NCBI RefSeq assembly: GCF_000186885.1
Contig: NC_014972.1
Coordinates: 3,750,001-3,782,000, forward strand
DNA from: Desulfobulbus propionicus DSM 2032
Lineage (GTDB): Bacteria > Desulfobacterota > Desulfobulbia > Desulfobulbales > Desulfobulbaceae
DNA: 32,000 nucleotides
Direction of reading: 5' to 3'
The position numbers and the translations under genes are program-made. The stretch's first letter is position 1. Each line of letters opens with the position of its first letter. The notes beneath the pieces were generated by a model that did not search any database, was not told where the DNA came from, and saw only the letters and a program-made list of their open reading frames with translations. Positions 1 to 23,294 of the stretch are shown piece after piece.

Positions 1-555
1 TTCCTGGGAATGGGGACGGTATTCCCCCGCGCCGAAATAGACCTCGCCGCCGGTGGTGAAGGCCCGGGCCGAAAGACCGGCCGCCAACCGCGCCGCCGCG
101 TCATCGGTATGGACGCGTACCCGGCTCAGGTCGGTACCGAGTCGAGGTTCGAAAAAGGCCCGTTCGCGGCCGGGCAGCGGATGACCGCCACCGCGACCAA
201 GCGCGAGGGGCTGGCCATCGGCAGAGGTGGCCGTTGTTCCCGGCACGGCCTTGCGGCGCACCTCTTCCTCCTGGTCGTTTTCCGCCCCGGGCCGCTGCCG
301 CTCTTCCTCGTCGATCGGCACCGTGTCCGCCGCCTTGCGTTGGATCGGTCCATCGTGCATGGCCAGCACCCGGTCGGCAACGCTATCGGCCTCGTGCTCC
401 AGGTGGTCATCGGTGGAACCGATGCGCAACTTGGTCTGCACCGGACTCTCGAGGGCCTCGCGCAGACTGGTGCGGTTGACCTCGATTCGGGTCGGCCGGA
501 TAACCGCCAGACGGCGGGCTCGGTGCTGCCTGCGGATATGCTGGAAGGATTTCAT
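1..555 (-). CDS. DUF4157-type domain protein, N-terminal 185 aa only (3' end beyond window); candidate eCIS-associated effector/toxin
   Basis: Not in the supplied ORF track because no stop codon lies inside the window. Hand translation of the minus strand from ATG 555-553 (GAGGAGG 5 nt upstream) stays open to base 1. Sequence: MKSFQHIRRQHRARRLAVIRPTRIEVNRTSLREALESPVQTKLRIGSTDDHLEHEADSVADRVLAM...GHPLPGRERAFFEPRLGTDLSRVRVHTDDAAARLAAGLSARAFTTGGEVYFGAGEYRP. The strings KL.IG..DD..E.EAD..A..V and PL....R..FE.R.G.D.S.VRVHTD..A......ARAFT.G..V.F..G.Y.P are the DUF4157 hallmark as I recall it. Confidence 0.8.
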   Translation of the reverse strand, partial: MKSFQHIRRQHRARRLAVIRPTRIEVNRTSLREALESPVQTKLRIGSTDDHLEHEADSVADRVLAMHDGPIQRKAADTVPIDEEERQRPGAENDQEEEVRRKAVPGTTATSADGQPLALGRGGGHPLPGRERAFFEPRLGTDLSRVRVHTDDAAARLAAGLSARAFTTGGEVYFGAGEYRPHSQE

Positions 556-591
556 GGCGACCTCCTCTTTATCCTAATGAATCGTGCACGG

Positions 592-3720: not shown

Positions 3721-3732
3721 AAGGCTCCCCTT

Positions 3733-5448
3733 TCAGGTGGTGGTGGCTTTGGGTGGCGCGCAGGCCAGGCTGGGGTCGGTGATCAGCACCGCCTCCATGC
3801 CCACAGGCAGAAATTCGTGCAGTTTCTCCAGCACCGCCTGGCGGCGGAGCACATAGCGGAGTTCGTGGTAGGCGCCCATCTCGCCGCCATCCTCGGCGCC
3901 GGTCTGGATGGCCGGGCTGCAGTCCGGATGGAGCACGCCGCAACCCGGCGCGCCAAAGGTCGCCTCCCAGAACAAGGGCGCGTCAGCGGTGCAGGTGTCG
4001 TTGAAACAGCGCAGCAACGAGCGCTTGTGTTGCGCCCGCCACAGCGGATCGTTGTCGATCAGCGGCTCAAGGGGATCGAACGGGTCGCTGGGTATCGGTT
4101 TTTCCGGGAGATGGAACAGGCGGCTGAAGCGGATGCAGCCAGCCGCGGGCACGTCGGTATCGATCCGATCCTTGCGCAACTCCGGCACCAGGATGGAGTC
4201 GCTGGCCTGGAGACACTCGGCCAGCAGGGTGTCAAGCACGGTGACATACTCCAGCCGCACCAGTCCCCGGGCAGCCTCGATCTTCTTGAACAGACAGCTG
4301 TACGCATCGACCACCGGCACCTCGCGCTCGGCGGTGGACACCCGCAGTTGACGAACCGCGCAGCCCCGAAGCTGGACCGCTCCATGATTGATCTCCACCC
4401 GGTTGTCCAGCCACAGATTGTCGAACCGGTAGAGGGCCGGGGTGTCCAGGGTGGCCACGCCGCGCACCCGGAGGGGGCCGTCGGTCAGACCGCGCAGCCC
4501 GATCAGCGGCCAAGGGGTGCCGTTCCATTCGGTCTGGCCGATGGTGAAGGCGATGTTGAGTTCCGGATGGACGCACTCGATGGTCTCGCCCGTCCTCCAC
4601 GCAGTGGTGGCCGCGGTGTCCAGGGCCTCGGTGACCAACGGTTCGAGGGCGGTCCACTGCACCGTCTGGTGGAGGCGGCGGAAAAAGCCCTCGGGCGGCG
4701 GCACATGGAGCAGCATCCGCCGGGGATGGTGCAGGCCGCGCCGACTGGTGGGGGTGCGCATGTCCACGGTGCGGCGGGACACATCCTGGTAGCTGTCCGG
4801 GGCGCAGGGAAGGCCGTGACGGTGGAGCTGCCGCCAGGCGATCGGCGCTGTTTCGCCGGGAAAGGAGGTCTCGCTGGCTGCCGGGTTGTTGGCCGCGCAT
4901 TGGACGGCCCGCGAGCAGAAGCGCATATCGGGCGTGACCGCCGGCAGACCCGGGTGGCGGGCACGCAGGCCCGGCGTGGCCGCGCCGGCGAGCGGTTCCT
5001 CGCCATAGGCCGTGGCTGGCAACAGGCTGCGGTCGATGCGCGGGGTCATGGCCAGCCGTTTCCACCCCTCCTGGATCTCGACCTCGAACTGGCCGACCTC
5101 CTCGGCAATCTGTTCGATGCTCACCCGGGTCCCCTTGCGCTGCCGCCAAGCCACCGCCTGGCCTACCTCGGCACGGCGGCCCTCGGCATCGGGCGACACC
5201 AGTTGCACGTCAAGCAACTGGGCAAAGTAGGGCACCAGCCAATCCTGACAGCGGCGGCCGTGGTCCGCGTCGGGAAAGCTGTCGTCCATCCGCTGGACCA
5301 CGGTGGCATGGAGGGCGTCGAGCAGTTCGCCATAGACCGACAGCAGGGCGTCGAGATCGCCGCTGGTATCGCGGACCCGCCAATGGGTCGGCAGCCAGTG
5401 CTGGAGCCGGGTGCCGTAGTGAGGCGTCGTTTCCGTCGAATCGCTCAT
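3733..5448 (-). CDS. Baseplate wedge protein, P2 gpI-like phage tail protein (Afp11/12-region equivalent)
   Basis: 571 aa. The N-terminal region ...CQDWLVPYFAQLLDVQLVSPDAEGRRAEVGQAVAWRQRKGTRVSIEQI fits the gpI/TIGR02242-type pattern (wL.wlA.l.g...... R.l...a....r.rGT). Its start overlaps the upstream gene stop by 4 nt (5445-5448). Confidence 0.65.
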   Translation of the reverse strand: MSDSTETTPHYGTRLQHWLPTHWRVRDTSGDLDALLSVYGELLDALHATVVQRMDDSFPDADHGRRCQDWLVPYFAQLLDVQLVSPDAEGRRAEVGQAVAWRQRKGTRVSIEQIAEEVGQFEVEIQEGWKRLAMTPRIDRSLLPATAYGEEPLAGAATPGLRARHPGLPAVTPDMRFCSRAVQCAANNPAASETSFPGETAPIAWRQLHRHGLPCAPDSYQDVSRRTVDMRTPTSRRGLHHPRRMLLHVPPPEGFFRRLHQTVQWTALEPLVTEALDTAATTAWRTGETIECVHPELNIAFTIGQTEWNGTPWPLIGLRGLTDGPLRVRGVATLDTPALYRFDNLWLDNRVEINHGAVQLRGCAVRQLRVSTAEREVPVVDAYSCLFKKIEAARGLVRLEYVTVLDTLLAECLQASDSILVPELRKDRIDTDVPAAGCIRFSRLFHLPEKPIPSDPFDPLEPLIDNDPLWRAQHKRSLLRCFNDTCTADAPLFWEATFGAPGCGVLHPDCSPAIQTGAEDGGEMGAYHELRYVLRRQAVLEKLHEFLPVGMEAVLITDPSLACAPPKATTT

Positions 5449-8414
5449 GCCAGGCTCTCCTCATAGTTTTCGATCATGACTGTGAAGGCGGTGGCATCAA
5501 ACACCAGGCATTGACGGGGACTGGGCCGCAAAGCGATCACCGCCGCACCGATCAGGGCTGCCTGGGGACGATCCGCCGGTGCCACGCCGCTTTGCGGCCA
5601 GGGCAAGCTGATGGCGCAGGAGCTGTTTTCCACCCCGGCCACCCCATCGACCACCTTATAGATCTCGCCACGGTAGAGCGGCTGACCGAGTCCCCGATGC
5701 TGTTCGTCAAAGGTTGTGGTCAGCGCGGCCGTGACCGCTTCCTTGACCGTCTGGCTGTCCACCGTGCTCCGCACCCGCACGGTGACGGTCAGGCGGAAGC
5801 GGACCCGCACATAGTCCTGGACCGTGACCATCACCCCCGGCTGGGTGCGCGCCGCCAGCCAGGCCTGCAGGGTGGTTTTGAGCGGAGCGGCCAGTGTGCC
5901 GCCGCCCGCCGCCATTACCACCACCTCCAACCGCTCCCGCCGTCCCAAGCCGGGGGCAAGGCGAAAGGCCTGGGCCTGCCACACGCTGGGGTGGCTGCGC
6001 GCCAGCTGGGCGCAATCCTCGAGGGAGACGGCCCGATCCAGGGCCAGCAGGCTGGCCGGGGCATTCTTGCGCAGGTCGGCCCGGCTCTCGCGATCATTGC
6101 CACCACCGCTGGCGAGGGGTTGGAGCACCGTTTCCAGCAGGGGATGGGGCTTGACCGGCTTGACCAGGCTGCCGGGATCGAGGTTGCCGGCCGCACCCAC
6201 GCCCTGGCGGAAGCGGACCCGGATGTTGTTGCCGCCGGAGGGCAGCCGCCGGCCATGACGGCCATCGCCAAAAACAATGACCGCATGGTTGTCCTCGTCG
6301 ATGCGCACCTGGTAGTGGGCATCGCTGGGTCCGGAATCCTTGAGGCTGCTCACCTGGGTCCAGGTCTCCCCAGCCACGGCGAGCTCCAGCGCGGCGCGCA
6401 CGCCGCTGCTCATGGTCACGTCGGCGACAAAGGCGAGATCCTCCACCTCCAGGGTGAAGCTCTGATGGCTGCGGGTGCCATCGCCACTGCCGAGCACACG
6501 CCACGGCCGCGCCTCACCGTGGCCGGAGGCGACCACATTGCCGAGGATTTCCAGGTTGCCGGCCGTGGTGCCCGTCGGCAGATCGTCAGCCAGATGCAGC
6601 CACGTCCCCTGGCTGTCGAGGTCGGCCAAGGTGGTCTCCATGGCCATCGTGCCGTTGGTGACGATCAGGGGGCGTCCGATCTTCATGCCGAACAGCGGGC
6701 TGTCGAGCGCGATGCGCCGGCCGCTCAGGGGAGTGCGGTTGTCGGTCCAGCCGAGCACGCGCGCCTGGGCAACGAAATGGCTGTGCACCCGGGTGCGGCC
6801 GAGGAAAAAGGGGCCGCCGCCGCGATCCTGCCAGGGGGGAGCGGCCACCAGGGTGGTTTCCTCGTGCTCCTCGTCCTGGGTGACCGCGCCCAGCCGCGCC
6901 CAGGCCATCTGCCCGGCCCTGACCACCACCGCCAGATCGCCGGCCGTGGTCTTGGTGCTCGCCTCGGTGACCAGGGAGGCGATCAGCCGCCCCTCCTCGC
7001 TCTTGTTGAGGAAGGTGTCCACCAGCCAGGGACCGGGGGCGATCGGCGGGGCCAGCAGGGTCTGGGGATTGTTGAGGCGGAGGTCGGTGTTGCCTGGCAC
7101 GCCGTCGGTGTCCGCATGCCAGGTCAGGCTGAGACAGGTGTAGCCGGGCCGGTCGTCCGCCTCGAGCGTGTCCGGATCGGTGCCGACCGGCACGTACTTG
7201 GCATGGAGGCAGTGGTAGCAGGGCAGATACTCGCGCTTGGCCCCCTCTTTGCCGATCACCCGGATGTCGGCCAGCCACTGGCCGGCCAGCCGCGACCAGT
7301 CGCCGGCGGCAAAGACCATGTCGATCACCGTGTCCTCGGCCAGGCCGTCCGGGTTGTCCGGGCCGACAATGACCCGCCGCCGGGGCGGCTTGGCCAGTTC
7401 GGTCAGGGCTAGGGTGACCGGGCGGGCCACGGTGGCCCCCACCAGGGTCAGCTGGTCGATCGGCCGGTAGAAGACCAGCCGATCGTCATGGACCCGCTTG
7501 ATCCTGCGGTAGAAGGGTTTGTCGTCCCCGGAGCGGATGAGGACGATGTCGCCGGCGGCAAGCCCGCTGGCCGGCACCGCCAGTTGCAGGCTGTGGCCGA
7601 CCGGCTCCGCGCCTTTGGTGGCCGGACCCAGCGGCTTGAGCCGCTCCTTGGGACAGCAGTGGACCAGGGTGGTGCCCTTGGTGAATCCGACAGGGATGGC
7701 CGGGGTCAGGGTCAGGGTGGTGCGGTCCTCACCGAGGACGATGCCGTGCACCAGATGGGCCGAGAGAGAACCACCGCCCTCCCGCTCGAGCACCAGCGGC
7801 TCGCCGATCTTGATCTTGTCCCATTTGTTTTCGAGTACCAGGGTGGTGCCGGAGATCGCTTCCGGACTCCGGCGATAATCCTTGGCATGGAGGCTGTTGA
7901 AGGCCGCATCGACCTCGATCTCGGTCAGGGTCTCGAAGATCACCGGCTTGCCCGCGGCCGGGCTGTGCTTGACCTGGAAGCCGGCGGCCACCACCCCGCG
8001 CTGCGCCTGCTTGACCAGGAGCGCCAGGGGTGTCTGGGCCGAGGCCGGCGGCAGGGGGGCGTAATCCAAGAGTGCCACCAGCCGCCGCAGGTTTTCCCAC
8101 TGGCTGGCCGTGCCCAGGTAGGATTCGTTGGCATAGGCGTCGATGTGCGCTGCCAGCACATGGCAGGAGCGGGCGAACTGACGGGTCAGCTGCCAGAGCA
8201 TGTCATGGGGATCGGCGTTGTAGAGGGTTTCCAGGCGGGCCTTGCGCGCCTCTTCGCTCTCCGCCTCCGGCGGATTGACGCCCGCCACCGGCTGCCACTG
8301 GGGAAACTTCTGCGCCAGGCCGGCGCGCAGCCGTTCCAGAAAGACGGCCGCATTGCCATCGATGTAGTCAAAGCGCGACAGGCCGGCGCGATTCCAACGG
8401 GTGAGGTCGCTCAT
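5445..8414 (-). CDS. Large baseplate assembly protein with C-terminal Baseplate_J (gpJ/gp6-like) region
   Basis: 989 aa. The N-terminus MSDLTRWNRAGLSRFDYIDGNAAVFLERL is typical of the 'putative baseplate assembly protein' found in tail-like clusters. The C-terminal LLALDRAVSLEDCAQLARSHPSVWQAQAF...VTVQDYVRVRFRLTVTVRV resembles the gpJ core (RAVt..Dy..lA...p.V). Confidence 0.65.
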   Translation of the reverse strand: MSDLTRWNRAGLSRFDYIDGNAAVFLERLRAGLAQKFPQWQPVAGVNPPEAESEEARKARLETLYNADPHDMLWQLTRQFARSCHVLAAHIDAYANESYLGTASQWENLRRLVALLDYAPLPPASAQTPLALLVKQAQRGVVAAGFQVKHSPAAGKPVIFETLTEIEVDAAFNSLHAKDYRRSPEAISGTTLVLENKWDKIKIGEPLVLEREGGGSLSAHLVHGIVLGEDRTTLTLTPAIPVGFTKGTTLVHCCPKERLKPLGPATKGAEPVGHSLQLAVPASGLAAGDIVLIRSGDDKPFYRRIKRVHDDRLVFYRPIDQLTLVGATVARPVTLALTELAKPPRRRVIVGPDNPDGLAEDTVIDMVFAAGDWSRLAGQWLADIRVIGKEGAKREYLPCYHCLHAKYVPVGTDPDTLEADDRPGYTCLSLTWHADTDGVPGNTDLRLNNPQTLLAPPIAPGPWLVDTFLNKSEEGRLIASLVTEASTKTTAGDLAVVVRAGQMAWARLGAVTQDEEHEETTLVAAPPWQDRGGGPFFLGRTRVHSHFVAQARVLGWTDNRTPLSGRRIALDSPLFGMKIGRPLIVTNGTMAMETTLADLDSQGTWLHLADDLPTGTTAGNLEILGNVVASGHGEARPWRVLGSGDGTRSHQSFTLEVEDLAFVADVTMSSGVRAALELAVAGETWTQVSSLKDSGPSDAHYQVRIDEDNHAVIVFGDGRHGRRLPSGGNNIRVRFRQGVGAAGNLDPGSLVKPVKPHPLLETVLQPLASGGGNDRESRADLRKNAPASLLALDRAVSLEDCAQLARSHPSVWQAQAFRLAPGLGRRERLEVVVMAAGGGTLAAPLKTTLQAWLAARTQPGVMVTVQDYVRVRFRLTVTVRVRSTVDSQTVKEAVTAALTTTFDEQHRGLGQPLYRGEIYKVVDGVAGVENSSCAISLPWPQSGVAPADRPQAALIGAAVIALRPSPRQCLVFDATAFTVMIENYEESLA

Positions 8415-9610
8415 CCTTTTCGCCCTCCGTGCAGCATCAGCCGATAGTAGCCCCGTTCGGGCCGGGCCGGATCGTTATCGCAGATCGCCACTTCCAGTCC
8501 CTCCAGGACGATGCGGCCGCTGGCGGTCTCGTCCTGAAAGCGGTCACCCAGCCGCTTGAAGCGGTTGAGGCAGATGTTGTCGATGCCGCTCAACCCCATC
8601 AACAGTTGATAGAGGTCGCTGGCCCACAGGTCCTCGCCAAAGCGGAGCCGGCCCGGCGCGAAAAAGCCGCCCGGCCCGGTACCCAGAGCCCTGTCCACCG
8701 CATGGCGGACCTCGGACTGGAAATACTGGTCATTGACCTGGATCGACAGGGTCAGGGTGATGCCGACCTCCACCGCCTCCTCCAGCACCACCTCCTGGCC
8801 CACCATGCGGTAGGTCTCGATATAGGGGTAGAGCACGGAGCGGACATTGGGGTGGTCGCTGCGCGCCGGCAGGGCCAGGTCGCGCTCGGCGTGGAAGGCC
8901 TGGGTCTGGGCCCAGACCTCGTCGCTGTAGACAGTGTGGTCAACATCGAGGCCAAGGCGCTGCCAGGCGATCACCGCCACATGGACCGTGGTCCAGGACC
9001 CGTCCCAGCGCTCCCAGGCATGGGCGCGCAGTACCAGGGGATGCAGTTCCAGCTGGCGCTCGAAATCCTCCAGGGTGACCATGCGGTGCTGATCGTGGAT
9101 GGCGCGCGGCCCATCGAGCCGGGCCTGCTCCATCTGCTCGGGATGATCGAGCCACCAGCGGTCAAACCGCTCCGTCTCGGTGGCGCTCAGCGGCGCCAGG
9201 GCCTCCAGTTCGCTCAAGTCGGCAAAGGGCGGGGTGCGCAGCCGCTTGGCCATCCCGGCCACGTCGTAGCCGATCAGCAGCAGCAGGCGGCGCAGCGATT
9301 CCGGCCGGCGGGCGGTTTCAAGAAAACTCTCGGACGCGGCCCGGTCAAGGGCATCGGACAACTGGTCGAGCCCGTAGGCCAGCACCTCGATCAGGGCCAC
9401 CTCGACATCGGCCGGGGTCCAACGCCTACGTTCCGGGAAACGGGCGGCCAGTTCCTGGAGCATGAACAGGCGGAAACCGTCGTAGTCGCGCTGATCCCAG
9501 TCGAAGTCGTCGCCCACCGTGGGCAGGATGTCCGGCAGATCGATCAGACGGCGGCCGCAGTCCGGGCAGGCCCCGTCAAACAACAGCTCGGCAACAGGAT
9601 CAACGGCCAT
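8411..9610 (-). CDS. Baseplate J-like protein (smaller gpJ/gp6-type paralogue)
   Basis: 399 aa. The segment ADVEVALIEVLAYGLDQLSDALDRAASESFLETARRPESLRRLLLLIGYD resembles the N-terminal gpJ-family pattern. It sits directly after gp25, as gpJ does in P2. It overlaps the upstream gene by 1 nt and the downstream gene by 4 nt. Confidence 0.55.
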   Translation of the reverse strand: MAVDPVAELLFDGACPDCGRRLIDLPDILPTVGDDFDWDQRDYDGFRLFMLQELAARFPERRRWTPADVEVALIEVLAYGLDQLSDALDRAASESFLETARRPESLRRLLLLIGYDVAGMAKRLRTPPFADLSELEALAPLSATETERFDRWWLDHPEQMEQARLDGPRAIHDQHRMVTLEDFERQLELHPLVLRAHAWERWDGSWTTVHVAVIAWQRLGLDVDHTVYSDEVWAQTQAFHAERDLALPARSDHPNVRSVLYPYIETYRMVGQEVVLEEAVEVGITLTLSIQVNDQYFQSEVRHAVDRALGTGPGGFFAPGRLRFGEDLWASDLYQLLMGLSGIDNICLNRFKRLGDRFQDETASGRIVLEGLEVAICDNDPARPERGYYRLMLHGGRKG

Positions 9611-9996
9611 CAGGGTGCTCCCACGGTAAAGACTTGGCTGTCACGATGGCCGATGGCGGCCAGGGTGTAGCTGATGGTGATGGTCAGTTTGTCCTCGTCG
9701 CCGCTGACACTGACCTCGATGCTCTTGGGATCGACCTCGCCCTGAAGGGCTTCGGCGAGGGAGGCCAGCAACCGGCGTTTGGTGATCTGCCACAGCGGCG
9801 TGGCATTGGGTTCGAACACCAGGGCCTTGACCCCTGCACCGAACTCGGGGCGGAAGACCCGCTCGCCGGGCAGGGTGAACAGCACCTGCTCGATCTGACC
9901 GCGGATGTGCTCGGCCCGGCCGGCCAGGCGCGGTCCGGTTGGGTCCATGGTGAAGGGAAAGGCCAGGTAGGGCGGATCAATCAGTCGGCGTGCCAT
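9610..9996 (-). CDS. GPW/gp25-family baseplate wedge protein
   Basis: 128 aa. IRGQIEQVLFTLPGERVFRPEFGAGVKALVFEP matches the gp25 core (I...i..iL.T..GER...P.fG..l..l.Fep). Size and position after the spike gene are as expected. Confidence 0.85.
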   Translation of the reverse strand: MARRLIDPPYLAFPFTMDPTGPRLAGRAEHIRGQIEQVLFTLPGERVFRPEFGAGVKALVFEPNATPLWQITKRRLLASLAEALQGEVDPKSIEVSVSGDEDKLTITISYTLAAIGHRDSQVFTVGAP

Positions 9997-10017
9997 GACA
10001 TGCTCCTTTCGTGTTCC

Positions 10018-10836
10018 TTACGCGCTCATCACCTTGGTGGACAGGCTGCTGGACTCGCCCATGGGGATAGGTGGTCCCGAGGGCCCCATGGAGGTGGGGT
10101 GGACATGGCCGGCGTACATGCCGAGAAAGGTGGTGCCCTTGATCACCGGTTCGCCGCCGCTGCCGCCCAGCAGCACCTGACTGCCCTCCAGGGTGAGCAT
10201 GCCGCTGGTGCTGACCTTGACCCCGGAACCGGTCATCTCCACCGTGTTGCCATTGGCATCCTCCAGCTTGGCGCCCTGGCTGTTGAGGGTCAGGGTGTTG
10301 CCGTTGGCGTCCTCCAAGATGATCGCCCCATTCTGCGCGTCCAAGGTGAGTTTGTCCTCGTTGTTGTCGGTCAACAGAACCTTGCCGTCCTTGTCCATCT
10401 CCAGCTTGGCCCCGGCCGAGTGGAGCAGCTGGATGGTCTCGCCGTCGTCCTTGTCTTCCAGCAGCAAGACATGGCCCTTGGCGGTGCGCAGCACCTGGGT
10501 GGTCGGCGGGTCCTGGGCTTCGGTGGGGGCATCGCCCGACTGCTGCCAGAAGGTGCCGGTCCAGATGGGAAAATCGAGGTTGCCGCCCTCGAACTCCACC
10601 CACACCTGGGCACCGACACCGGGCACGGCGAAGAACCCCTGATTGCTCAAACCGCCGCAGGGCAGGCAGGGCAGGGCCCAGCCGCTCTCGGCCTCCCCCA
10701 GCAGACTCGGCACCCGCAGCTTGACCCGGGCCAGCCGCTCCGGATCGGCGTTGTCGGTGACAAAGCCCCGGTATTTGCCGTAGGCCCGGCGTTGCCCAAG
10801 ATTCTGGGCCAGTTGCTGCTGCAGATCATCAGGCAT
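10018..10836 (-). CDS. Central spike protein, phage baseplate assembly protein V / gp5-VgrG OB-fold type, with beta-helix and HxH apex
   Basis: 272 aa. YGKYRGFVTDNADPERLARVKLRVPSLLGEAESGWALPCLPCGG...VPGVGAQVWVEFEGGNLDFPIWTG is the gpV/gp5 OB-fold signature. The C-terminal half has a repeated LEDANGNT(L/V) motif 17 aa apart, followed by YAGHVHPT near the tip. Confidence 0.85.
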   Translation of the reverse strand: MPDDLQQQLAQNLGQRRAYGKYRGFVTDNADPERLARVKLRVPSLLGEAESGWALPCLPCGGLSNQGFFAVPGVGAQVWVEFEGGNLDFPIWTGTFWQQSGDAPTEAQDPPTTQVLRTAKGHVLLLEDKDDGETIQLLHSAGAKLEMDKDGKVLLTDNNEDKLTLDAQNGAIILEDANGNTLTLNSQGAKLEDANGNTVEMTGSGVKVSTSGMLTLEGSQVLLGGSGGEPVIKGTTFLGMYAGHVHPTSMGPSGPPIPMGESSSLSTKVMSA

Positions 10837-11987
10837 CAGAGCACTCCCGCAAGCGCTCCGGCCAAGCCGGAGACGCTGTCCAGATTATCGCCATAGGCGT
10901 TGCGCAGCAGCCGAAACCGCTGCCGGTAGCCCTGGGGGGTAAAGCTATGACTGACACTGTCCACGTAATAGATGCCGGACATCCGCTCCCCCAGACCATC
11001 CACCGGCACCGGCAGGCCGGCCTGAAGCACGTGGCCGTAGAGGGTGCCGTCGAGTTCGCCCTCGCCCTGGATGCGGTGGATATCGAGATCATTGATCTTC
11101 ATCTGCGCCAGGGCCTGCAAGCGCTGGGCGTCGGCCCCGGCCTCGGCTGACATCCGCCAGACAAAGTCCTCCAGGCCGGCGGCGCTGCTGTCGGCCGGCG
11201 TGGTACCCAGCAGATGCAGGTCGGAGCGCACCGGTTCCGGCGAGTCGACGGTGTCGCCGCTGTCCGCAGGCGCATCATAGGCCACCGCATCGGGCTGGTG
11301 GCCGTCGGCCCGCACCGACAACGACAAACAGTTGGTCTCGGCGCCGGCGTAGACCATGATCGTGCCCTGGGGGTCCTCGTCCAGCCGCATGGGACCGAAA
11401 TAGACCCGCCCCTCGCGGAAGATCAGCTCGTAGCCGTTGAACTCGGCCCGGGCCTTGAGGAACTTGATGTCGGTGTCGTCCTGGGCCACGCCCACCAATC
11501 GATCCTGGCCCGGGCCGTTGTCCGGATGGGGCGACAGGCCGTAGGCCGAGAGGATGTCCATCAGCGCCAGGGTATCGCTGCTGGGCAGGTCGGCGGTGCC
11601 CCAGGTTCTGCGCTGGTGGGTCCGGTCAAGACGGATGGAGTCGTCCTGACATTCGACCCGCACCTGCGCCGCGCCCGCATCCTGCGGCGTCTCCACTCGC
11701 ACCTCGCGGATGTAGCCGCGCATGATCTCCTCTTGCCGGCTGCCGAAAGCGGCGGCAATGACGATTCGCGCCCAGGGCTCGAGGATACCGGCATCCTGCA
11801 CGGTCCAGGTGCCCTGCTCGTTGCGCCGGGTTTCCAGGGTGAGCGTTGCCGCCGCTGCCTCGGTACGGCCGCACTCCACCGTCACCTCCAGCAGAAAGGG
11901 ATAGAGTTCGCTGATCTCCACCCCATCGACGGTGATCACGCATTCGGCCGGGGCGCGCTCCTTTTGCGACAGGAGGTCGAGCAGCAT
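10836..11987 (-). CDS. Baseplate hub protein, phage late control gene D (gpD / gp27-like)
   Basis: 383 aa, immediately upstream of the spike with a 1-nt overlap. The C-terminal MSGIYYVDSVSHSFTPQGYRQRFRL fits the gpD/VgrG-hub pattern (G.Y.v..v.H......gY...f.l). It follows a LysM/gpX-like gene, as in P2 X-D logic. Confidence 0.7.
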   Translation of the reverse strand: MLLDLLSQKERAPAECVITVDGVEISELYPFLLEVTVECGRTEAAAATLTLETRRNEQGTWTVQDAGILEPWARIVIAAAFGSRQEEIMRGYIREVRVETPQDAGAAQVRVECQDDSIRLDRTHQRRTWGTADLPSSDTLALMDILSAYGLSPHPDNGPGQDRLVGVAQDDTDIKFLKARAEFNGYELIFREGRVYFGPMRLDEDPQGTIMVYAGAETNCLSLSVRADGHQPDAVAYDAPADSGDTVDSPEPVRSDLHLLGTTPADSSAAGLEDFVWRMSAEAGADAQRLQALAQMKINDLDIHRIQGEGELDGTLYGHVLQAGLPVPVDGLGERMSGIYYVDSVSHSFTPQGYRQRFRLLRNAYGDNLDSVSGLAGALAGVL

Positions 11988-11996
11988 GGTCTCCTC

Positions 11997-12287
11997 CTAC
12001 TCCTTGGCCTTGGGGATGAGGATCACCTCGCCGGCGCGCTCGGCCAGCGAGATCTCCACCCCCGAGAGCAGATCCGGGTTGGCGTCGAGGATCCGCCACC
12101 ACAGGCGGGCATCGCTGTAGTAGTGGTGGGCCAGGAGGTCGAGCCGGTCGCCCTCCTGGATCACATGCTCCACCACGCCGATGGCCGGGCCGATCTCGCG
12201 CGGCCGGGTGCCCTTGCAGCGCACCTGGCCGCTGTCATCGGCCTCGAAACGGCGGGCCTCCTTGTAGCGGGAATTCTTGAGCAGCAT
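11997..12287 (-). CDS. LysM-domain tail protein (P2 gpX-like)
   Basis: 96 aa. HVIQEGDRLDLLAHHYYSDARLWWRILDANPDL is a LysM/tail-X type motif (y.V..GD.Ld.lA...Y.d...ww.I..aN). Its ATG shares one base with the stop of the upstream tube-like gene (TGATG at 12285-12289). Confidence 0.7.
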   Translation of the reverse strand: MLLKNSRYKEARRFEADDSGQVRCKGTRPREIGPAIGVVEHVIQEGDRLDLLAHHYYSDARLWWRILDANPDLLSGVEISLAERAGEVILIPKAKE

Positions 12288-12934
12288 CAGAACAGTCCTC
12301 CGATACCGGTGACGGCGGTGCGGGCGGTGTTCATCGCCGCGCCGACCACCTGGCGGATCTTTTCCACCTCGTAGAAGGGGTTGTTGCCCTCGATCACCTG
12401 CAAGCCCAGTTTGACCGTGGCCCGGTAGGGCGCAAGGTTGGGCAGGTGGGCCGATTCCCCCACCTCGATGCTCTTGAGGAACACCGGCAACACATGGGTG
12501 CCCCAGACGAGCAGCAGCACCGAGGCGGTCTGGCTGCGCTGGAAGGCACGGCTGCCGCCGAATCCCAGGCTGGCCAGGGTCTGCAGGCCACCCGGCCCCT
12601 GGGTCTTGGGCTCGACCATGCTGCGCAGGGTGTCCAGTTCCGGCTGGATGCCGATCTCCTGGGCCACTGGGTCGCCATCGTTCATCCGGTCGGTGGCGTC
12701 GATCAGGATCTCGAGGTCAAAGCTCTCGGGCTCCACCGCCACCCCCTGGGCCACCCTCGCGGTCTCGGTGGGCAGGGCAAAATCGTAGCCGCCTCGCGTG
12801 GCCGGGGTCGAGCCCAGGGTCAGGGTGACGCTGCGGTTGCGGGTCAGACTCTGGGGGTTGAAGTCAAAGGCGAGCATCAGCGGCGGCAGGGCCAGCGCGT
12901 ATTCAACCAGAAATCCTTTGATCGGCGACAACAT
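12287..12934 (-). CDS. CIS tube-fold protein, tube-initiator candidate (N-terminal part of Afp7-type proteins)
   Basis: 215 aa. The N-terminus MLSPIKGFLVEYALALPPLMLAFDFNPQSLTRNRSVTLT resembles the tube-like N-terminal domain that is usually fused to LysM in CIS loci (recalled, not searched). It lies immediately upstream of the LysM ORF. Confidence 0.6.
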   Translation of the reverse strand: MLSPIKGFLVEYALALPPLMLAFDFNPQSLTRNRSVTLTLGSTPATRGGYDFALPTETARVAQGVAVEPESFDLEILIDATDRMNDGDPVAQEIGIQPELDTLRSMVEPKTQGPGGLQTLASLGFGGSRAFQRSQTASVLLLVWGTHVLPVFLKSIEVGESAHLPNLAPYRATVKLGLQVIEGNNPFYEVEKIRQVVGAAMNTARTAVTGIGGLF

Positions 12935-12945
12935 GGCGCTTCCTC

Positions 12946-13182
12946 CTAGGGCCTGTTCGCGGCAAGACCGCGCTGAATCGCATCGGCGATTTGATGGGCG
13001 ATGCGACGATCACTGTGGTCCGCCTCCACCTGCACCGGCCCGACGCGCAGTTGGTCGACCCGACCGAAGCCGAGATCGTCGCGCCCGGCCAGGGCCTCGC
13101 CCACCAGACGGCCAATGCGTTGGGCCCGGTGCTCGAACCCGGCAGGCAGTTGCAGGCGCAGATGGTCGATCTCAGTGGTCAT
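12946..13182 (-). CDS. Small hypothetical protein (78 aa) coupled to the ATPase gene
   Basis: The ORF start overlaps the ATPase stop by 11 nt and the ORF ends 11 nt before the next gene, filling an otherwise unexplained gap in a tightly packed operon. No recognisable motif. Confidence 0.4.
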   Translation of the reverse strand: MTTEIDHLRLQLPAGFEHRAQRIGRLVGEALAGRDDLGFGRVDQLRVGPVQVEADHSDRRIAHQIADAIQRGLAANRP

Positions 13183-14527
13183 GGAGCAGCTCCCGAGGCA
13201 GATGCGCGGCCAGGGGACCCAGATCCTGGGGATTCATCTCCCGGCCCTCCTTGCCCAGTTCCCGCCACACCGCGTGGGCAAGGTGGCCAAGGCCAATGGC
13301 CACACCCTCGCCTGCGGCCAGATAGGCGGCGTGCAGGGCAGCGTTGCGGATCGAGCCGCCGGTCAGGGCCATGGCCGCGCCGAGAAAGATGGGATCCACC
13401 TCCGGGGCAAGCGGGGCCTTGGGCGGCAGCAGACGGCGCCACAGCTCGGACCGGGCAGCGGCATCGGGCCGGGGAAACTCCACCACCAGCTGGAAGCGGC
13501 GGGTGAAGGCGGAATCCAGCTGCTTGCGCAGGTTGGTGGTGAGGATGCAGGGGCCGTCATGGGCCTCGATACGGGTCAGCAGGTGGCTGACCTCCATGTT
13601 GGCGTAGCGGTCCCGGGCCTCCTTGACCTCGCCGCGCTTAGCAAAGAGGGCGTCGGCCTCGTCGAACTGGAGCACCATCGGCTGGCCGTGGGCCGCATCG
13701 AACAGCCGGTTGAGGTTCTCCTCGGTCTCGCCCACATATTTGCTCACCAGCCGTCCGAGATCGACCCGGTACAACGGCCAGCCGAGCGCACCGGCCAGCA
13801 CAGCCGCGGCAAAGGTCTTGCCCGTGCCCGACGGCCCGGTGAACAGGGCCACCGGCCCGCCCACGCTCTGACCGTGCCACAGACCGACCACGGTGTCGCG
13901 CTGCTCGATCCACAGCAGAAATTCGCGCAACATGGCCAACCGGCTCTTGGGCAGGACCAGATCGTCCCACCCGGCCTGCTGACGGACCAGGGTGGCCCCG
14001 GGCGGCGGCGGCAGATCGAGCGGCCGGCCGGTCAGCCGACCCACCAGCCAGGGTTCGGGCAGGATCGGCCGGTAGGGATCGTCCTGCTCCAGGCGCACCA
14101 GGCGGCGACGGCGCAGGGTGGATTCGGGAGCGAGAAGGCGGCGCAACTGTTCCCCTTGACCGGCATCCAGGGCCAACAGTTCCTGGATCAAGCTGCGCGT
14201 GGCCCAGGGCTGAACCGAGCCTGCCTGCAAATTCTGGAAGGACCAGCCGAGACGAGGTTCCAGTTCCGGCCCCAGGGTGCAGGCCAGGATATCGTACTCC
14301 AGCGGTTGCAGCCCGAAACCGAGCGCGGTCTCCCACACCCCCGCAGGTTCGCGCAATGTTTGCACCTCGGCTTGGAGGCGGCGCAAACTCTCCAGCTCCT
14401 CATCGCCCAGGGTCTCGCCGCGGCGGCTCTTGGCCAGGCACCAGGCGAGCAGGTCGAGACGCCGCCATTCGGCGTCCAGGGCGGGCAGGACGGAGAGTTC
14501 GGCCAGGGAGGCGTTCATGGCGCTCAC
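13172..14527 (-). CDS. AAA+ ATPase (Afp15-type CIS assembly ATPase)
   Basis: 451 aa. Walker A is GPSGTGKTFAAAVLAGALGWPLYRVDLGRLVSKYVGETEENLNRLFDAA, Walker B is MVLQFDEADALF, and TTNLRKQLDSAFTRRF is a sensor/second-region-of-homology style segment. The ~190-aa N-terminal region has no motif I recognise. Confidence 0.9.
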   Translation of the reverse strand: MSAMNASLAELSVLPALDAEWRRLDLLAWCLAKSRRGETLGDEELESLRRLQAEVQTLREPAGVWETALGFGLQPLEYDILACTLGPELEPRLGWSFQNLQAGSVQPWATRSLIQELLALDAGQGEQLRRLLAPESTLRRRRLVRLEQDDPYRPILPEPWLVGRLTGRPLDLPPPPGATLVRQQAGWDDLVLPKSRLAMLREFLLWIEQRDTVVGLWHGQSVGGPVALFTGPSGTGKTFAAAVLAGALGWPLYRVDLGRLVSKYVGETEENLNRLFDAAHGQPMVLQFDEADALFAKRGEVKEARDRYANMEVSHLLTRIEAHDGPCILTTNLRKQLDSAFTRRFQLVVEFPRPDAAARSELWRRLLPPKAPLAPEVDPIFLGAAMALTGGSIRNAALHAAYLAAGEGVAIGLGHLAHAVWRELGKEGREMNPQDLGPLAAHLPRELLHDH

Positions 14528-15543
14528 CCGTTAGCGAGGGTAACCAGGAGAGGATTGGAGCGGACGCGGAGCACGGTGCCGTCACTGCTGCGGGTGAAGG
14601 TCCGCTCGGCAGCGAGCAGCAACTGGCCCGGGCGGTCGTTGAACGGCAGGGGGAGGGCGGCGGCGGTCGCTGCGGCTGCAGCCTCGGGATCGATGCCGCT
14701 GTCGGTGATGACCACGGACGTCGGCGGTGCCACCTGCTGCCAGCCGCTGGCGGCCTCCCAGCTCTGCCAACACAGATCGACCGTGGCCCCTGGTTCGCCC
14801 GCCACCCAGACCTGGGGGACAAAGGCGGCCAGTTCCGGACTGCCCACGGTAAACAGCAGGCTCAGCGCGCAAGCACCATCCTGGACAAAGGCAAGGGCTG
14901 GTGTCCAGTCCTCGGTGCGGGTGTCCGGCTGCATGGCGGCCACCCGTGGCCCCTGCGCGCTGGCAGTGACCGCCTGACGGTCCAGGGTGGCTTGCACCTG
15001 CAGGCCAAGGCTGGCGGCCAGCGGCGGTTGCAGGGCCGGTTGCACCGGCACCACCGGCATGAGCGAAATTTCGTAGAGCAACGAGGGCCGGTAGATGGTA
15101 TCTCCCTGGGTGGACCACAGCTGATTGAGCTGATCGAGCCCCAGCGGCAGGAAGACCACCTGCAGATGATACTCTACATCGTCGACGTTGAGGATGAACA
15201 CCGGCCGCTCGTGGAAGATGCGACTGACCTCGCCGATCAAGCGCAGATCGTTTTCGCCGGGACCGATGGCGTCTTCCTCGGCGGCAAAGGGGGTAATCAG
15301 GCAGAAGGCGCGCAGCCAGCCGGTTGCACCCGGCAGGGTGTCGGGGAAGAGTCCAGCAGGTTCAAAGCGGTGGAAGAAGAGGTTGAGTCGGTGGTCGCTG
15401 TCGCCGGCACCAGCCGAGGCGGTTTCCGCCGGCGTGGCCAGCACCACCGTGACCTTGCTGCGGTCAGGAGCGTTGATCTCGCTGTCAAGATAGGCGCGAA
15501 GACCCTTGCAGACCTGGGAGATCGGAGACGGTGCCAGTGCCAT
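14524..15543 (-). CDS. DUF4255 (Pvc16/Afp16-type) tail terminator/cap protein
   Basis: 339 aa. The N-terminal ISQVCKGLRAYLDSEI...VTVVLATP...HRLNLFFHRFEP fits the DUF4255 pattern (...V.v....P......l.l.LY.v.en). It overlaps the ATPase gene by 4 nt. Confidence 0.75.
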   Translation of the reverse strand: MALAPSPISQVCKGLRAYLDSEINAPDRSKVTVVLATPAETASAGAGDSDHRLNLFFHRFEPAGLFPDTLPGATGWLRAFCLITPFAAEEDAIGPGENDLRLIGEVSRIFHERPVFILNVDDVEYHLQVVFLPLGLDQLNQLWSTQGDTIYRPSLLYEISLMPVVPVQPALQPPLAASLGLQVQATLDRQAVTASAQGPRVAAMQPDTRTEDWTPALAFVQDGACALSLLFTVGSPELAAFVPQVWVAGEPGATVDLCWQSWEAASGWQQVAPPTSVVITDSGIDPEAAAAATAAALPLPFNDRPGQLLLAAERTFTRSSDGTVLRVRSNPLLVTLANG

Positions 15544-15544
15544 A

Positions 15545-16570
15545 TCAGAGCCGTTTCAAATAATTGCGGCTGACAAAGCCGGTATCGGTCCGGGCCGTGG
15601 TCCCGGACCGGGTTGCAGGTGACCCGTTGCTGACCACCACCACATCGATCCGCCCGATCACCAGGTGCGGTGGCTGTTCCTCTGAAGCGCGGGGTGGCGC
15701 ATAATCCATCGGCACCCCCATCCCGTCTTCTCCGGACAAGGGGGGCACAGGGGGAGCGCTGCGCATGGGTCGCGACGTCGCGCCGACCTCTCCCCATGGG
15801 CCATCGCTCCGCTCCGGTGCCATCGTCGGAACCTGCATGCCGCCACCAGCTTGCGGCGGATGGATATTCTCCCCGCCGCCCGCGAAACCGGGGAACGGCA
15901 CACCTGTGGACCGATGGGCATCCGTGCCCTCCGGTCGTTCGGCTGCCGTTGTCCCCGGTTGTCCCGATCTCAGGGGGGTGACCGGTGCGGAAAAAGAATC
16001 AGAAGGGGCGCCCTGACCCGAAGCCCGACTCTGGTACGTTTCTTCTCGTTCGCTAACAAATCGCCCACTGCCTTCTGGGAGTCGGGACTTATGCGTCTGA
16101 TGAACGGGATCCGATTCGACTGGCCCAGGCACAACAACTGACTGGTGCGTCCTCGATTCGGCGATCATCTCGGCTGCCGTTCTCTTGCCTGGACTTCCAT
16201 GATTGACCTGTCCTGTTGCCAGTTCGTTCCCTCGATTATCGCCCAAAACGGAAATGATGTCGCGGTTGCCGTTGACATCCTTGGCAGAAAAGTCTGGTTT
16301 CTCAACCTCGCTCCCCACTGACAAAGGGTCACCGGCCGGAAGATCGGATTCTCCCACCCCCAACCGGAATGACGCCTCTCGGGACCCACCCTCCATCACT
16401 GGAGAAGGCCCCCCCTTCTGAAATCTGAAAATCGTGGTCATGCCGGATGGCGCGGCCGGTTCAAGCGGCTCCTCTTCCGGCGTCTCCACCTCCGGCAGCA
16501 TCTCGCGGCGCACCCATGTGCCTGGAAGGGGCCTGCGGGCATCGCGGATGGTGTCGTCGAACAAACCCAT
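15545..16570 (-). CDS. Hypothetical Pro/Gly/Ser/Glu-rich protein in the tape-measure position
   Basis: 341-codon ORF separated by 1 nt from both neighbours. Composition is low-complexity and likely disordered. The only ordered-looking part is the C-terminus HLVIGRIDVVVVSNGSPATRSGTTARTDTGFVSRNYLKRL. No long competing ORF lies on the other strand across its centre. Confidence 0.5.
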   Translation of the reverse strand: MGLFDDTIRDARRPLPGTWVRREMLPEVETPEEEPLEPAAPSGMTTIFRFQKGGPSPVMEGGSREASFRLGVGESDLPAGDPLSVGSEVEKPDFSAKDVNGNRDIISVLGDNRGNELATGQVNHGSPGKRTAAEMIAESRTHQSVVVPGPVESDPVHQTHKSRLPEGSGRFVSEREETYQSRASGQGAPSDSFSAPVTPLRSGQPGTTAAERPEGTDAHRSTGVPFPGFAGGGENIHPPQAGGGMQVPTMAPERSDGPWGEVGATSRPMRSAPPVPPLSGEDGMGVPMDYAPPRASEEQPPHLVIGRIDVVVVSNGSPATRSGTTARTDTGFVSRNYLKRL

Positions 16571-16571
16571 A

Positions 16572-17363
16572 TCAGCTCACCATGCCCCGACTGTGGTCGA
16601 TCATCTCCAGGTAGCGCTGGCGCCGGCTGTGCGGCAGGCCCAGGATCTCGGCCTCGCTCCAGTGGTAGTGGAGCGCGATCCGGTGCACCTGCGCGAGGAG
16701 GTTATCGCTCTGCCGGCGCACCACCCGGTAGGGATCAAGATCAACGGCCGTATTGGCGCCGCATTCCGGACAACAGGCCTGTACCTGAACCACCACCGCC
16801 GGGGCCACCCGTTCCAGAGCAGCCTCCACCGAATCGACGAGGGAACCGTCCACTTCATCCAGTGGCGCGGGATCGCACGCCAACCGCTGCAGCAGCCAGC
16901 CGCGTGCCCGATCATCGGGGATGCGAGTCAGTCCCTCCTGGTCACGGCCGGTGGGCAGGCGGAAGCGCAGGGTGCGTCCCTGGTGTTCAACCGTGGCCCA
17001 GGGGTAGCCCGCGCCCGCCTCCTGCACCGGCAACTCAGCGTAGTCGAGATGAAAATCAAACCGGGCTGCACAGGCGGTGCAGTCGGCGTGGAACCAGCCG
17101 CCGGAAAAGCCGAGATACCGTTCCAGCTCGCGCATGAGGAACTGGCGGTCGGCAACGCACAGGGATGCGGCCCGCTCCTCGCTCATTGGCTGTCCGCCCA
17201 ACTCCCTCAGGGCCAGGGCCAGGATCCGGGTGACCGCCTCGGGGGTGCTGGCCGCCAGGGCCGCGGTCTCGGTCAAGGCAAGCTCAAGGCTGCCCGACAC
17301 CGGCTGGAACCGGTACTGCCGCTGCCGCTTTCCCCCTTCGATCAAGCCGCCCGGAAGCTGCAT
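16572..17363 (-). CDS. Hypothetical Cys4 (zinc-ribbon-like) protein in the tail-assembly-chaperone position
   Basis: 263 aa. The two CxxC pairs are HADCTACAARF (C95, C98) and QACCPECGAN (C198, C201). Two similar segments occur: QYRFQPVSGSLELALTE and TLRFRLPTGRDQEGLTRI. It sits between the tube gene and the tape-measure-position gene. Confidence 0.6.
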   Translation of the reverse strand: MQLPGGLIEGGKRQRQYRFQPVSGSLELALTETAALAASTPEAVTRILALALRELGGQPMSEERAASLCVADRQFLMRELERYLGFSGGWFHADCTACAARFDFHLDYAELPVQEAGAGYPWATVEHQGRTLRFRLPTGRDQEGLTRIPDDRARGWLLQRLACDPAPLDEVDGSLVDSVEAALERVAPAVVVQVQACCPECGANTAVDLDPYRVVRRQSDNLLAQVHRIALHYHWSEAEILGLPHSRRQRYLEMIDHSRGMVS

Positions 17364-17375
17364 GGAAACCTCCTC

Positions 17376-17885
17376 TTAGGTCTCGGTCGGCTCGACCACC
17401 GCCGTATCGCGCTGCCAGCCCTCGTGCTGCAGGGTGATGGTCTGGATGCCGACCGCGTTCATGGCCCCCGCATCCATCTCCGGCAGGGCCTGATACTCGG
17501 ACACCCAGGCCCGGAACAGTTTGTAGGAGATGGCCACTGTGCCTTGGAGGTTGAGGACGTTGATGACGATGTCCTTGCGGAAATTCTTGAGCGACATGGC
17601 CGCGTCACCCTCGATGTTGTTGACCAGGTTGGCCCAGTTCTCGAACACCGGGTCGTGCGACAAGCCCTGCTCCAGGGTAATGGGCTCGTAGCTGGTGCCG
17701 CCGGGGAGAATGCGTTCCTTGCTCGGGTCGCCGGCGGCGCGCCATTTGACCGCCTCGGTCTTGCGCTTGAGGGCGCCCATTTTCTTCAAGCCGGCCACCG
17801 GCTTGCCGTCGATCAGGATCTGGAACTTGAAGGTCCGGTAGGGATCGTAACGATGGGCGTTGACAGGAAAGGTGGGAGCAGCCAT
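17376..17885 (-). CDS. Contractile tail tube protein (T4 gp19-like / TIGR02241-type)
   Basis: 169 aa. YRTFKFQILIDGKPVAGLKKMGALKRKTEAVKWRAAGDP matches the tube signature (f.F.v.idG......f.evsGL....e....reGg). It starts 15 nt downstream of the sheath gene. Confidence 0.9.
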   Translation of the reverse strand: MAAPTFPVNAHRYDPYRTFKFQILIDGKPVAGLKKMGALKRKTEAVKWRAAGDPSKERILPGGTSYEPITLEQGLSHDPVFENWANLVNNIEGDAAMSLKNFRKDIVINVLNLQGTVAISYKLFRAWVSEYQALPEMDAGAMNAVGIQTITLQHEGWQRDTAVVEPTET

Positions 17886-17900
17886 TTCTATGCCTCCTTA

Positions 17901-20836: not shown

Positions 20837-20871
20837 GGTGTTATCCTTCGAAACATAAAAAAACCGACGGT

Positions 20872-23117: not shown

Positions 23118-23294
23118 GTTGTGTTCCTCTTTTGTGTGTGAAATGAAGAGTCGGTCGATGTTCCGCCCATCGCGCTCAGGGAGGCACGCTTCCTTCCTGC
23201 TCGTCGTTGCGGATGGAGGGGTTTCGGCCGTTTTTCCGGCAGACGATGGACTTTGTCCTGTTTTTATCCAGCCACAGCATACCCGATATTTTTG

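Follow-up and report, generated by a model that had tools for sequence, protein, structure and literature searches.

We sought to determine what is encoded by the gene that leaves the edge of a 32,000-nucleotide stretch of Desulfobulbus propionicus DSM 2032 DNA (assembly GCF_000186885.1, contig NC_014972.1, positions 3,750,001 to 3,782,000; hereafter the window), where it follows the operon of an extracellular contractile injection system (eCIS) on the same minus strand (window 592-19790). A preliminary description, made from the sequence of the window alone, had placed an unlisted gene for a DUF4157 protein at the tail of this operon and had called its product the likely payload of the particle. 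The question was whether this gene, which is Despr_3260, encodes an injected enzyme, a helper of another cargo protein or something that merely adjoins the eCIS. We read the sequence of Despr_3260, its domain architecture, its conserved catalytic motif, its genomic linkage and its conservation across species directly from DNA and protein records. By analogy with the described cargo proteins of AlgoCIS, the eCIS of Algoriphagus machipongonensis, we think it reasonably probable that Despr_3260 is a second eCIS cargo of the Cgo1 type, and that its C-terminal metzincin-like domain would be the delivered enzyme.

Direct translation of the minus strand gave 185 codons free of stops from window position 555 to position 1, with the ATG at 555-553 and a product starting MKSFQHIRRQ. 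This agrees with the preliminary description, as does the absence of the gene from the program-made list of open reading frames (ORFs), which leaves out frames that run out of the window without a stop. The GAGGAGG ribosome binding site that it had reported 36 nt after the fibre-like gene is present as well, but the 36 nt separate the stop codon of that upstream 1042-amino-acid gene (594-592) from the Despr_3260 ATG, and not from the ribosome binding site. The translated part is an exact match to residues 1-185 of protein P0313, which is Despr_3260 (ADW19387.1, WP_015725911.1). The gene is therefore unlisted in the ORF track of the window only; in GenBank, RefSeq and UniProt it is already annotated as a 'DUF4157 domain-containing' or 'eCIS core domain-containing protein'. 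We found no mention of Despr_3259 to Despr_3261 or their accessions in the literature.

To read the gene beyond the window we used L002, one of several near-identical metagenome contigs retrieved through a neighbouring 571-amino-acid protein. L002, whose position 7471 is the counterpart of window base 1, differs from the window at 3 of 5448 nt. Extension to the left, which had been proposed as a check, added 203 further codons with no early stop, giving a full length of 388 residues and a stop 612 nt past window base 1. Six population variants of the protein, found on dozens of contigs, are all 388 residues long and differ solely by A13S, T108M and T237A. Since all six are full length, we regard the gene as intact and maintained, and we rejected a pseudogene or short peptide, as no stop was met. 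The length of the frame is in itself weak evidence, because the DNA is 63-68% G+C and an ATG-started ORF of 197 amino acids lies opposite Despr_3260 (window 10-603, plus strand). G+C content by codon position was indistinguishable between the two frames. The antisense ORF, which was not put through a family search, is in all likelihood a shadow ORF such as G+C-rich DNA gives rise to. We accepted the Despr_3260 frame as real because of its hidden Markov model (HMM) match, its orthologues and its exact match to the annotated protein. Despr_3260 is co-transcribed with the eCIS structural genes, judging from the 36-nt gap with a ribosome binding site ahead of it, the 17-nt gap to the next gene and the common strand.

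The HMM match is to Pfam PF13699, the DUF4157 family, presently named eCIS core domain. On the window fragment it scored 67.1 bits (E=1.6e-18) against a gathering cut-off of 22, and on full-length Despr_3260 110.8 bits (E=3.7e-32) over residues 126-203, so that the proposed DUF4157 HMM check came out well above cut-off. Because the fragment match reaches only position 60 of the 79 profile positions, the domain is truncated by the window edge. The HExxH motif of DUF4157, HELAH at residues 192-196, begins at the seventh residue past that edge, and its H192, E193 and H196 are invariant in the 13 relatives of the family alignment. Both this motif and a separate domain at residues 204-388 thus lie outside the window, as had been foreseen. 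Two conserved DUF4157 blocks had also been named. Both are present and the second, at residues 126-185, is the part matched by PF13699, but the first, at residues 39-66, falls outside the Pfam model, though it is recurrent: the consensus (Q)xKLxxGxxxDxxExEADxxAxxV is found in unrelated DUF4157 proteins, and the motif occurs in P0001, P0004, P0005 and P0025, in 9 of the 13 family members and in the product of the next gene, Despr_3259.

For structural comparison we used an AlphaFold2 model of P0094, a homologue 52% identical to Despr_3260 whose cluster at 90% identity also holds a protein of Azoarcus sp. DD4. A model from a 3-sequence alignment was discarded (predicted local distance difference test, pLDDT, 52), and the model from a 32-sequence alignment (pLDDT 77.9) was used. 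In it, the motif of residues 39-66 forms a predicted strand and helix with block-mean pLDDT of 67-90, while residues 1-30 and 81-113 of P0094 have pLDDT <50. Taking composition as a proxy for disorder, residues 1-125 of Despr_3260 contain a single aromatic residue and 60% disorder-promoting residues, and the first 40 residues hold 10 Lys or Arg against 3 Asp or Glu. No hydrophobic signal peptide is present: over 19 residues the Kyte-Doolittle mean reaches 0.91 at most, with its peak away from the N-terminus. Relative to the orthologue on contig L014, the N-terminal region is 56% identical, DUF4157 73% and the C-terminal domain 71%. Where DUF4157 passes into the C-terminal domain, a (Q/H)RKID motif is conserved, with its Arg (R209) invariant in the family alignment. 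QRK-like motifs are met again in DUF4157 proteins within their N-terminal regions, and both kinds could be processing sites.

The C-terminal domain, residues 204-388, matched no Pfam or NCBIfam family above cut-off. Its best match below cut-off in Pfam was Peptidase_M10 (16.3 bits against a cut-off of 24), followed by Reprolysin_3, Reprolysin_4 and Reprolysin_5 at about 14 bits, and TIGR03296 scored 21.3 bits against 110.8. What characterizes the domain is an extended zinc motif, HEVGHMMGLDD at residues 328-338, which fits the metzincin consensus HExxHxxGxx(H/D) and is followed by Tyr340. H328, E329, G331, H332, D338, Y340, D357 and M359 are invariant in the 13 family members, G335 is conserved in at least 90% of them, and the zinc motif is retained across 32 wider relatives. 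Met359, in the sequence DIMAN, would provide the Met-turn; it is invariant in the 13 sequences and present in at least 90% of the 32. The P0094 model, with pLDDT of about 90 over this domain, shows the order strand, helix A, four strands, helix B with the HExxH, Met-turn and helix C. The top Foldseek matches in the PDB were ADAMTS-5, fragilysin and ADAM17 (probability 0.99, E=8e-4). PDB sequence searches with Despr_3260, with a profile of its C-terminal domain and with the nuclease end of Despr_3259 returned nothing significant. In snapalysin (MEROPS M7) the third zinc ligand is an Asp. Two distant relatives of the Despr_3260 domain gave weak Peptidase_M7 matches, and with metzincins of the snapalysin and adamalysin/fragilysin types the domain has in common HExxHxxGxxD, the Met-turn, the C-terminal helix and the predicted order of elements. 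It differs from them in its size of about 175 residues, in having no signal peptide or classical prodomain, in its fusion to DUF4157 and in falling under the gathering cut-off of every Pfam and NCBIfam peptidase family. On sequence motif and model, it appears to be a compact metzincin-like zinc peptidase from a small family without a curated name.

A word-index search for the C-terminal domain gave only 3 relatives, a count we did not trust because Despr_3260 itself, although in the collection, was never returned. An exhaustive profile search over 1.84 billion cluster representatives yielded 162 relatives at E<=1e-3; of these, 15 reach E<=1e-10 and 3 reach E<=1e-30. All of the 11 best relatives (309-457 residues) carry DUF4157 N-terminal to the match. 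In eight weaker relatives (P0110, P0120, P0129, P0144, P0147, P0149, P0170 and P0239; E from 4e-10 to 7e-4) the domain sits at the extreme C-terminus of RHS-repeat proteins, with an RHS_repeat or RHS match upstream of it; this position is the polymorphic-toxin domain slot of RHS proteins. The family members with a readable neighbourhood (the window, L012, L014, L094 and L010) all lie in or beside an eCIS locus, and in 5 of these 5 loci the metzincin-domain gene is directly followed by another DUF4157 gene (Table 1). The fusions to DUF4157, the eCIS neighbourhoods and the toxin position in distant relatives are not those of a housekeeping metallopeptidase unrelated to the eCIS. On L012 (9740-10720) the N-terminal region of the homologous gene lies in another frame, a frameshift in a draft metagenome. 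On L010 the metzincin-like domain is a gene of its own (10001-10507, 168 residues), so that the two domains also occur split over two genes.

Despr_3260 is not the last gene of the series. Despr_3259 (WP_015725910.1, P0350), which encodes 1374 residues, starts 17 nt after it and lies outside the window, so the placement at the operon tail does not hold. Residues 111-188 of its product form a DUF4157 domain of its own. The product further has a central region of about 800 residues that matches PHROG tape-measure families 58, 305, 1272 and 1535 (E=2e-9 to 5e-6) and contains four strongly hydrophobic segments, and a His-Me-type motif, GHLLNDNLGG...N...N, which with Endonuclea_NS_2, whose cut-off is 27, scored 19.6 bits in DSM 2032 and 27.6 in the orthologue. 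Homologues of this nuclease end carry PF13930, some of them fused to DUF4157, and the protein ends in a helix-hairpin-helix motif. Comparison of Despr_3259 with its L014 counterpart (11186-15133) gave 67% identity overall, with the tape-measure-like core visibly far better kept than the nuclease end; polymorphic toxins whose C-termini are exchangeable show this pattern. On contig L013 a 2-bp deletion at 9857 (L002 11552-11553; Logan SRR13718021), just ahead of the nuclease motif, splits the gene into ORFs of 1185 and 175 residues. Other members of the cluster have 1372 or 1374 residues and the type strain has 1374; the deletion is either an assembly error or a natural nuclease-less allele. A search for the adjacent immunity-like small gene that had been suggested found none: there is no small ORF between Despr_3259 and the following gene, which is convergent and radA-like.

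The closest described counterpart of Despr_3259 is Tme of Streptomyces davawensis (BN159_7576), a DUF4157-bearing, tape-measure-related endonuclease effector that co-purifies with spike proteins (PMC11126660). In both, DUF4157 stands at the N-terminus, a long core follows that is hydrophobic and helical and remotely resembles phage tape-measure proteins, and the C-terminal part holds a nuclease-like domain (non-specific endonuclease type). Tme is longer, with >2200 residues (Tme-C being residues 2030-2247), and is encoded among spike genes, whereas Despr_3259 follows the fibre gene, ends in a helix-hairpin-helix and has a nuclease match below cut-off in DSM 2032.

We next compared Despr_3260 with the known DUF4157 proteins. 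The eCIS loci of 13 phyla are enriched in DUF4157, which there precedes toxin domains in the same protein, frequently across a long linker, or is encoded by a neighbouring gene (PMC8213781), and 36% of the known eCIS toxins contain it (Danov 2024, PMC11297309); the preliminary description had stated this association correctly. Like the eCIS-associated toxins (EATs) of Geller 2021 and Danov 2024 (PMC8213781, PMC11297309), Despr_3260 places DUF4157 N-terminal to an enzymatic domain, is encoded near the 3' end of the eCIS operon, adjoins a further DUF4157 gene and has an N-terminus with few aromatics that is rich in disorder-promoting residues. Its C-terminal domain has no Pfam family, and the protein belongs to the large group, described in the same two studies, with DUF4157 and no further annotated domain. 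The two AlgoCIS cargo proteins, Cgo1 (498 residues) and Cgo2 (1228 residues), share one layout, with DUF4157 between a disordered N-terminal region and a C-terminal domain. Together they fill the lumen of the tube, from which they are lost on contraction (PMC8894135). Despr_3260 appears to have the same three-part build as these known eCIS cargo proteins, with a basic, disordered-looking N-terminal region ahead of DUF4157 and the C-terminal domain. Cgo1 (ALPR1_12695) resembles it in domain order and in its two HExxH motifs, of which the first likewise lies in DUF4157 and the second in the C-terminal domain. The proteins are of a like size class (498 and 388 residues), each with a longer DUF4157 partner (1228 and 1374), and both eCIS operons have an AAA+ ATPase. 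The hosts belong to different phyla, Bacteroidota for Cgo1 and Desulfobacterota for Despr_3260. For AlgoCIS cargo the N-terminal region is required for loading and the DUF4157 and C-terminal domains are dispensable (bioRxiv 10.64898/2026.05.27.728243); lumen location and N-terminal loading are established for Cgo1 only.

A mechanism can be drawn by analogy with Cgo1 and Cgo2 of AlgoCIS and with PVC payloads. The AAA+ ATPase of the operon would recognise the N-terminal region of Despr_3260, and the protein would be threaded into the inner tube's lumen, perhaps anchored through DUF4157 to the tube-initiator/spike complex, and would travel together with its larger Tme-like neighbour Despr_3259. 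Contraction of the sheath would expel both into the target, where the peptidase domain would act. The loading, injection, proteolytic activity and toxicity that we ascribe to Despr_3260 are all predictions of this analogy.

Several points weigh against a role as injected enzyme. Every Pfam and NCBIfam peptidase match of the C-terminal domain falls short of its curated cut-off, the Foldseek TM-scores are low (0.32-0.42, normalised to the target) and come from a model of the homologue, not of Despr_3260, and the likeness to Cgo1 is one of domain order and motif placement. The catalytic motif need not be the toxic principle, because Cgo1 is toxic in E. coli independently of both of its HExxH motifs (PMC8894135). 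The absence of an immunity gene argues against a kin-targeting toxin, or implies another form of self-protection. Finally, a small DUF4157 protein of Streptomyces lividans is a partner and stabiliser of a tape-measure-like cargo and not a toxin itself (PMC13277306), and Despr_3260 too sits directly ahead of a tape-measure-like protein. The architecture foreseen in the preliminary description stood, and a payload role is what we infer for Despr_3260. Its terms 'operon tail' and 'the payload' both have to be amended: Despr_3259, encoded downstream, is a larger payload candidate that is at least as good and has better precedent, the locus lacks an immunity gene, and the S. lividans protein provides an experimental precedent for an adaptor.

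That adaptor, Sle2 (SLIV_17110), is encoded like Despr_3260 directly beside a tape-measure-related cargo gene, and it binds both the tube initiator and the tape-measure-like cargo Sle1, which it stabilises (PMC13277306). We consider it possible, if rather unlikely, that Despr_3260 is likewise an accessory protein, whose DUF4157 docks to the tube initiator, to Despr_3259 or to both and whose metzincin domain matures Despr_3259, by cutting off its loading region or DUF4157 or by freeing the nuclease from the tape-measure core, in the producer or after co-injection. Sle2 co-elutes with the tube initiator SlpT2 and the N-terminal part of Sle1, and the abundance of Sle1 drops in an sle2 deletion (PMC13277306); DUF4157 has been proposed to act as a chaperone in cis or in trans (Danov 2024, PMC11297309). 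A DUF4157 gene follows in every one of the five loci, Despr_3259 matches four tape-measure families, and the RKID motif with its invariant R209 lies at the domain junction, all of which would suit such a role. But Despr_3259 has its own DUF4157 and N-terminal motif and should need no adaptor, and the neighbour of Sle2 differs from it in this respect, as do gene order and host lineage. The downstream partners have 244, 279, 769, 1316 and 1374 residues, which speaks against one conserved substrate; for the three shortest, DUF4157 is the sole recorded Pfam match. A maturase would not be expected in the RHS toxin slot, where relatives of the domain occur, and Cgo1 and Cgo2 showed no interaction and load independently (PMC8894135). 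Sle2 also differs from Despr_3260 in the conserved peptidase-like domain of the latter, the main text of PMC13277306 mentioning no metallopeptidase or metalloprotease. A narrower version, in which Despr_3260 would be a co-packaged protease that frees the toxin only after injection, by cleaving the Tme-like protein, or else further cargo with DUF4157, at conserved basic junctions (the RKID Arg being one), seems to us improbable. If true, it would explain why a DUF4157 gene follows in all five loci, why an immunity gene is dispensable and what purpose the peptidase motifs of DUF4157 cargo serve.

The missing immunity gene could also mean that Despr_3260 itself protects the producer, by keeping the DNase-type Despr_3259 inactive until loading or release. 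The convergent radA-like gene is all that follows the nuclease-bearing Despr_3259, and Geller 2021 (PMC8213781) speculates that DUF4157 confers immunity through temporal or spatial inactivation of toxins. We give this idea very little credence: the same C-terminal domain stands beside DUF4157 partners without a detected nuclease domain (L010, L012 and L094), the invariant catalytic motif points to an enzyme and not to an inhibitor, and Despr_3260 has no similarity to known nuclease immunity proteins. It is just as improbable that Despr_3260 is built into the particle as a structural protein, or that it is an ordinary secreted metallopeptidase which happens to be encoded next to the eCIS. The Pfam label 'eCIS core domain' for PF13699 and the classification of DUF4157 as core in eCIS loci of 13 phyla (Geller 2021, PMC8213781) would fit a structural part, but 'core' refers to breadth of distribution and not to structural position. 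The atomic models of AlgoCIS list Alg-named structural proteins, with the Cgo proteins seen only as lumen density (Xu 2022, PMC8894135), and SLP particles of an S. lividans sle1 and sle2 mutant had no apparent structural defect (PMC13277306). The family of the C-terminal domain is tied to eCIS loci and RHS C-termini, which argues against both versions, and the missing hydrophobic signal peptide argues against secretion; a Sec-secreted housekeeping protease was rejected on the grounds of that N-terminus and the link of the family to eCIS loci.

As a probable Cgo1-like second cargo, Despr_3260 is an ordinary member of the known DUF4157 cargo class; the gene was annotated, the class is published and the picture of eCIS biology is unchanged. 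Among predicted eCIS cargo the DUF4157 proteins form the largest class, and 983 of 1130 have no other annotated domain (Danov 2024, PMC11297309). For Despr_3260 we can offer a concrete assignment of the otherwise unannotated C-terminal part, as a compact, snapalysin-like metzincin module that also occurs in RHS toxins. What is new is modest: this assignment with its RHS link, a cargo pair with a Tme-like long member, and an eCIS locus in D. propionicus, a species absent from the available rows of the Geller 2021 genome table, where D. elongatus is the sole Desulfobulbus. The arrangement resembles that of Cgo1 and Cgo2, with a long cargo that is Tme-like and ends in a nuclease-like domain. Since it is found in a cultivable sulfate reducer, D. 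propionicus DSM 2032 could be used for probing DUF4157 and the second peptidase motif.

The features of the locus are collected in Table 1. The CIS_tube-like protein may be the partner to which DUF4157 docks, as an analogy with SlpT2 suggests (PMC13277306), and the AAA+ ATPase is presumed from the literature to be the cargo loader.

Table 1. Features of Despr_3260, the eCIS operon and comparative loci (window coordinates unless a contig is named; aa, amino acids)
Feature	Position	Strand	Evidence or remark
Despr_3260, 5' part (185 of 388 codons; DUF4157 / eCIS_core protein)	1..555	-	remaining 203 codons past base 1
DUF4157 / eCIS_core domain, aa 126-185	1..180	-	Pfam PF13699, profile positions 1-60 of 79
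N-terminal region, aa 1-125	181..555	-	composition and homologue model; presumed loading signal
Pre-domain motif VQTKLRIGSTDDHLEHEADSVADRVLAM, aa 39-66 (block 1 of the preliminary description)	358..441	-	recurs across DUF4157 proteins
Shine-Dalgarno GAGGAGG	561..567	-	read from sequence; 5 nt upstream of ATG, inside 36-nt intergenic gap
DUF6519 fibre-like protein, Despr_3261, 1042 aa	592..3720	-	Pfam PF20129, E=8.7e-18
Baseplate/spike block	3733..11987	-	Pfam and PHROGs
Tail_P2_I	3733-5448	-	Pfam/PHROGs
Baseplate_J	5445-8414	-	Pfam/PHROGs
Wedge protein	8411-9610	-	Pfam/PHROGs
gp25	9610-9996	-	Pfam/PHROGs
VgrG-like OB-fold protein	10018-10836	-	Pfam/PHROGs
383-aa gene	10836-11987	-	no Pfam match; weak phage tail-protein match only
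Tube-initiator-like (CIS_tube)	12287..12934	-	Pfam PF19266, E=4e-5, 23.8 bits, under 27-bit cut-off
AAA+ ATPase with winged-helix domain (Pvc15/Alg15-like)	13172..14527	-	Pfam AAA E=2.1e-24, WHD E=1.4e-9
Structural genes, operon 5' end	14524..19790	-	sheath, tube, two unassigned genes, cap
Pvc16_N cap	14524-15543	-	Pfam E=2.2e-17
Tube	17376-17885	-	Phage_T4_gp19, E=3.2e-37
Sheath	17901-19790	-	Phage_sheath_1, Phage_sheath_1C
Despr_3259	L002 8101-11967; L013 6412-10528		directly beyond window base 1
L014 (Desulfobulbus sp. metagenome-assembled genome), DUF4157 fusion, 387 aa			66% identity; behind DUF6519 fibre-like gene, full synteny with window; next: 1316-aa DUF4157 protein, then radA
L012, DUF4157 fusion			frameshift in draft; after eCIS operon; next: 769-aa DUF4157 protein
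L094, DUF4157 fusion			inside eCIS operon; next: 279-aa DUF4157 protein
L010, stand-alone domain			beside eCIS operon; next: separate 244-aa DUF4157 gene
L095, relative without DUF4157			not near eCIS

A separate tape-measure gene of the Afp14 type was not recognised in the eCIS operon with Pfam or PHROGs, which is of note given the tape-measure-like core of Despr_3259. Three minus-strand ORFs of 263, 341 and 275 residues within the operon or next to it (window 15545-17363 and 20168-20995) matched nothing above the curated cut-offs of Pfam and PHROGs, the 263-residue ORF giving a weak DUF6760 match only. The eCIS island is flanked on one side by a housekeeping block, a YchJ-like SEC-C-motif gene and then ilvC, and on the other by radA. 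The ketol-acid reductoisomerase ORF of this block (window 21642-23318, minus strand) was listed with 558 residues, and its KARI_N domain starts at residue 103; translation probably begins at an internal start. A protein of 646 residues (window 25116-27056, minus strand), encoded several kb upstream of the eCIS operon, has a SWIM zinc finger as its sole Pfam match.

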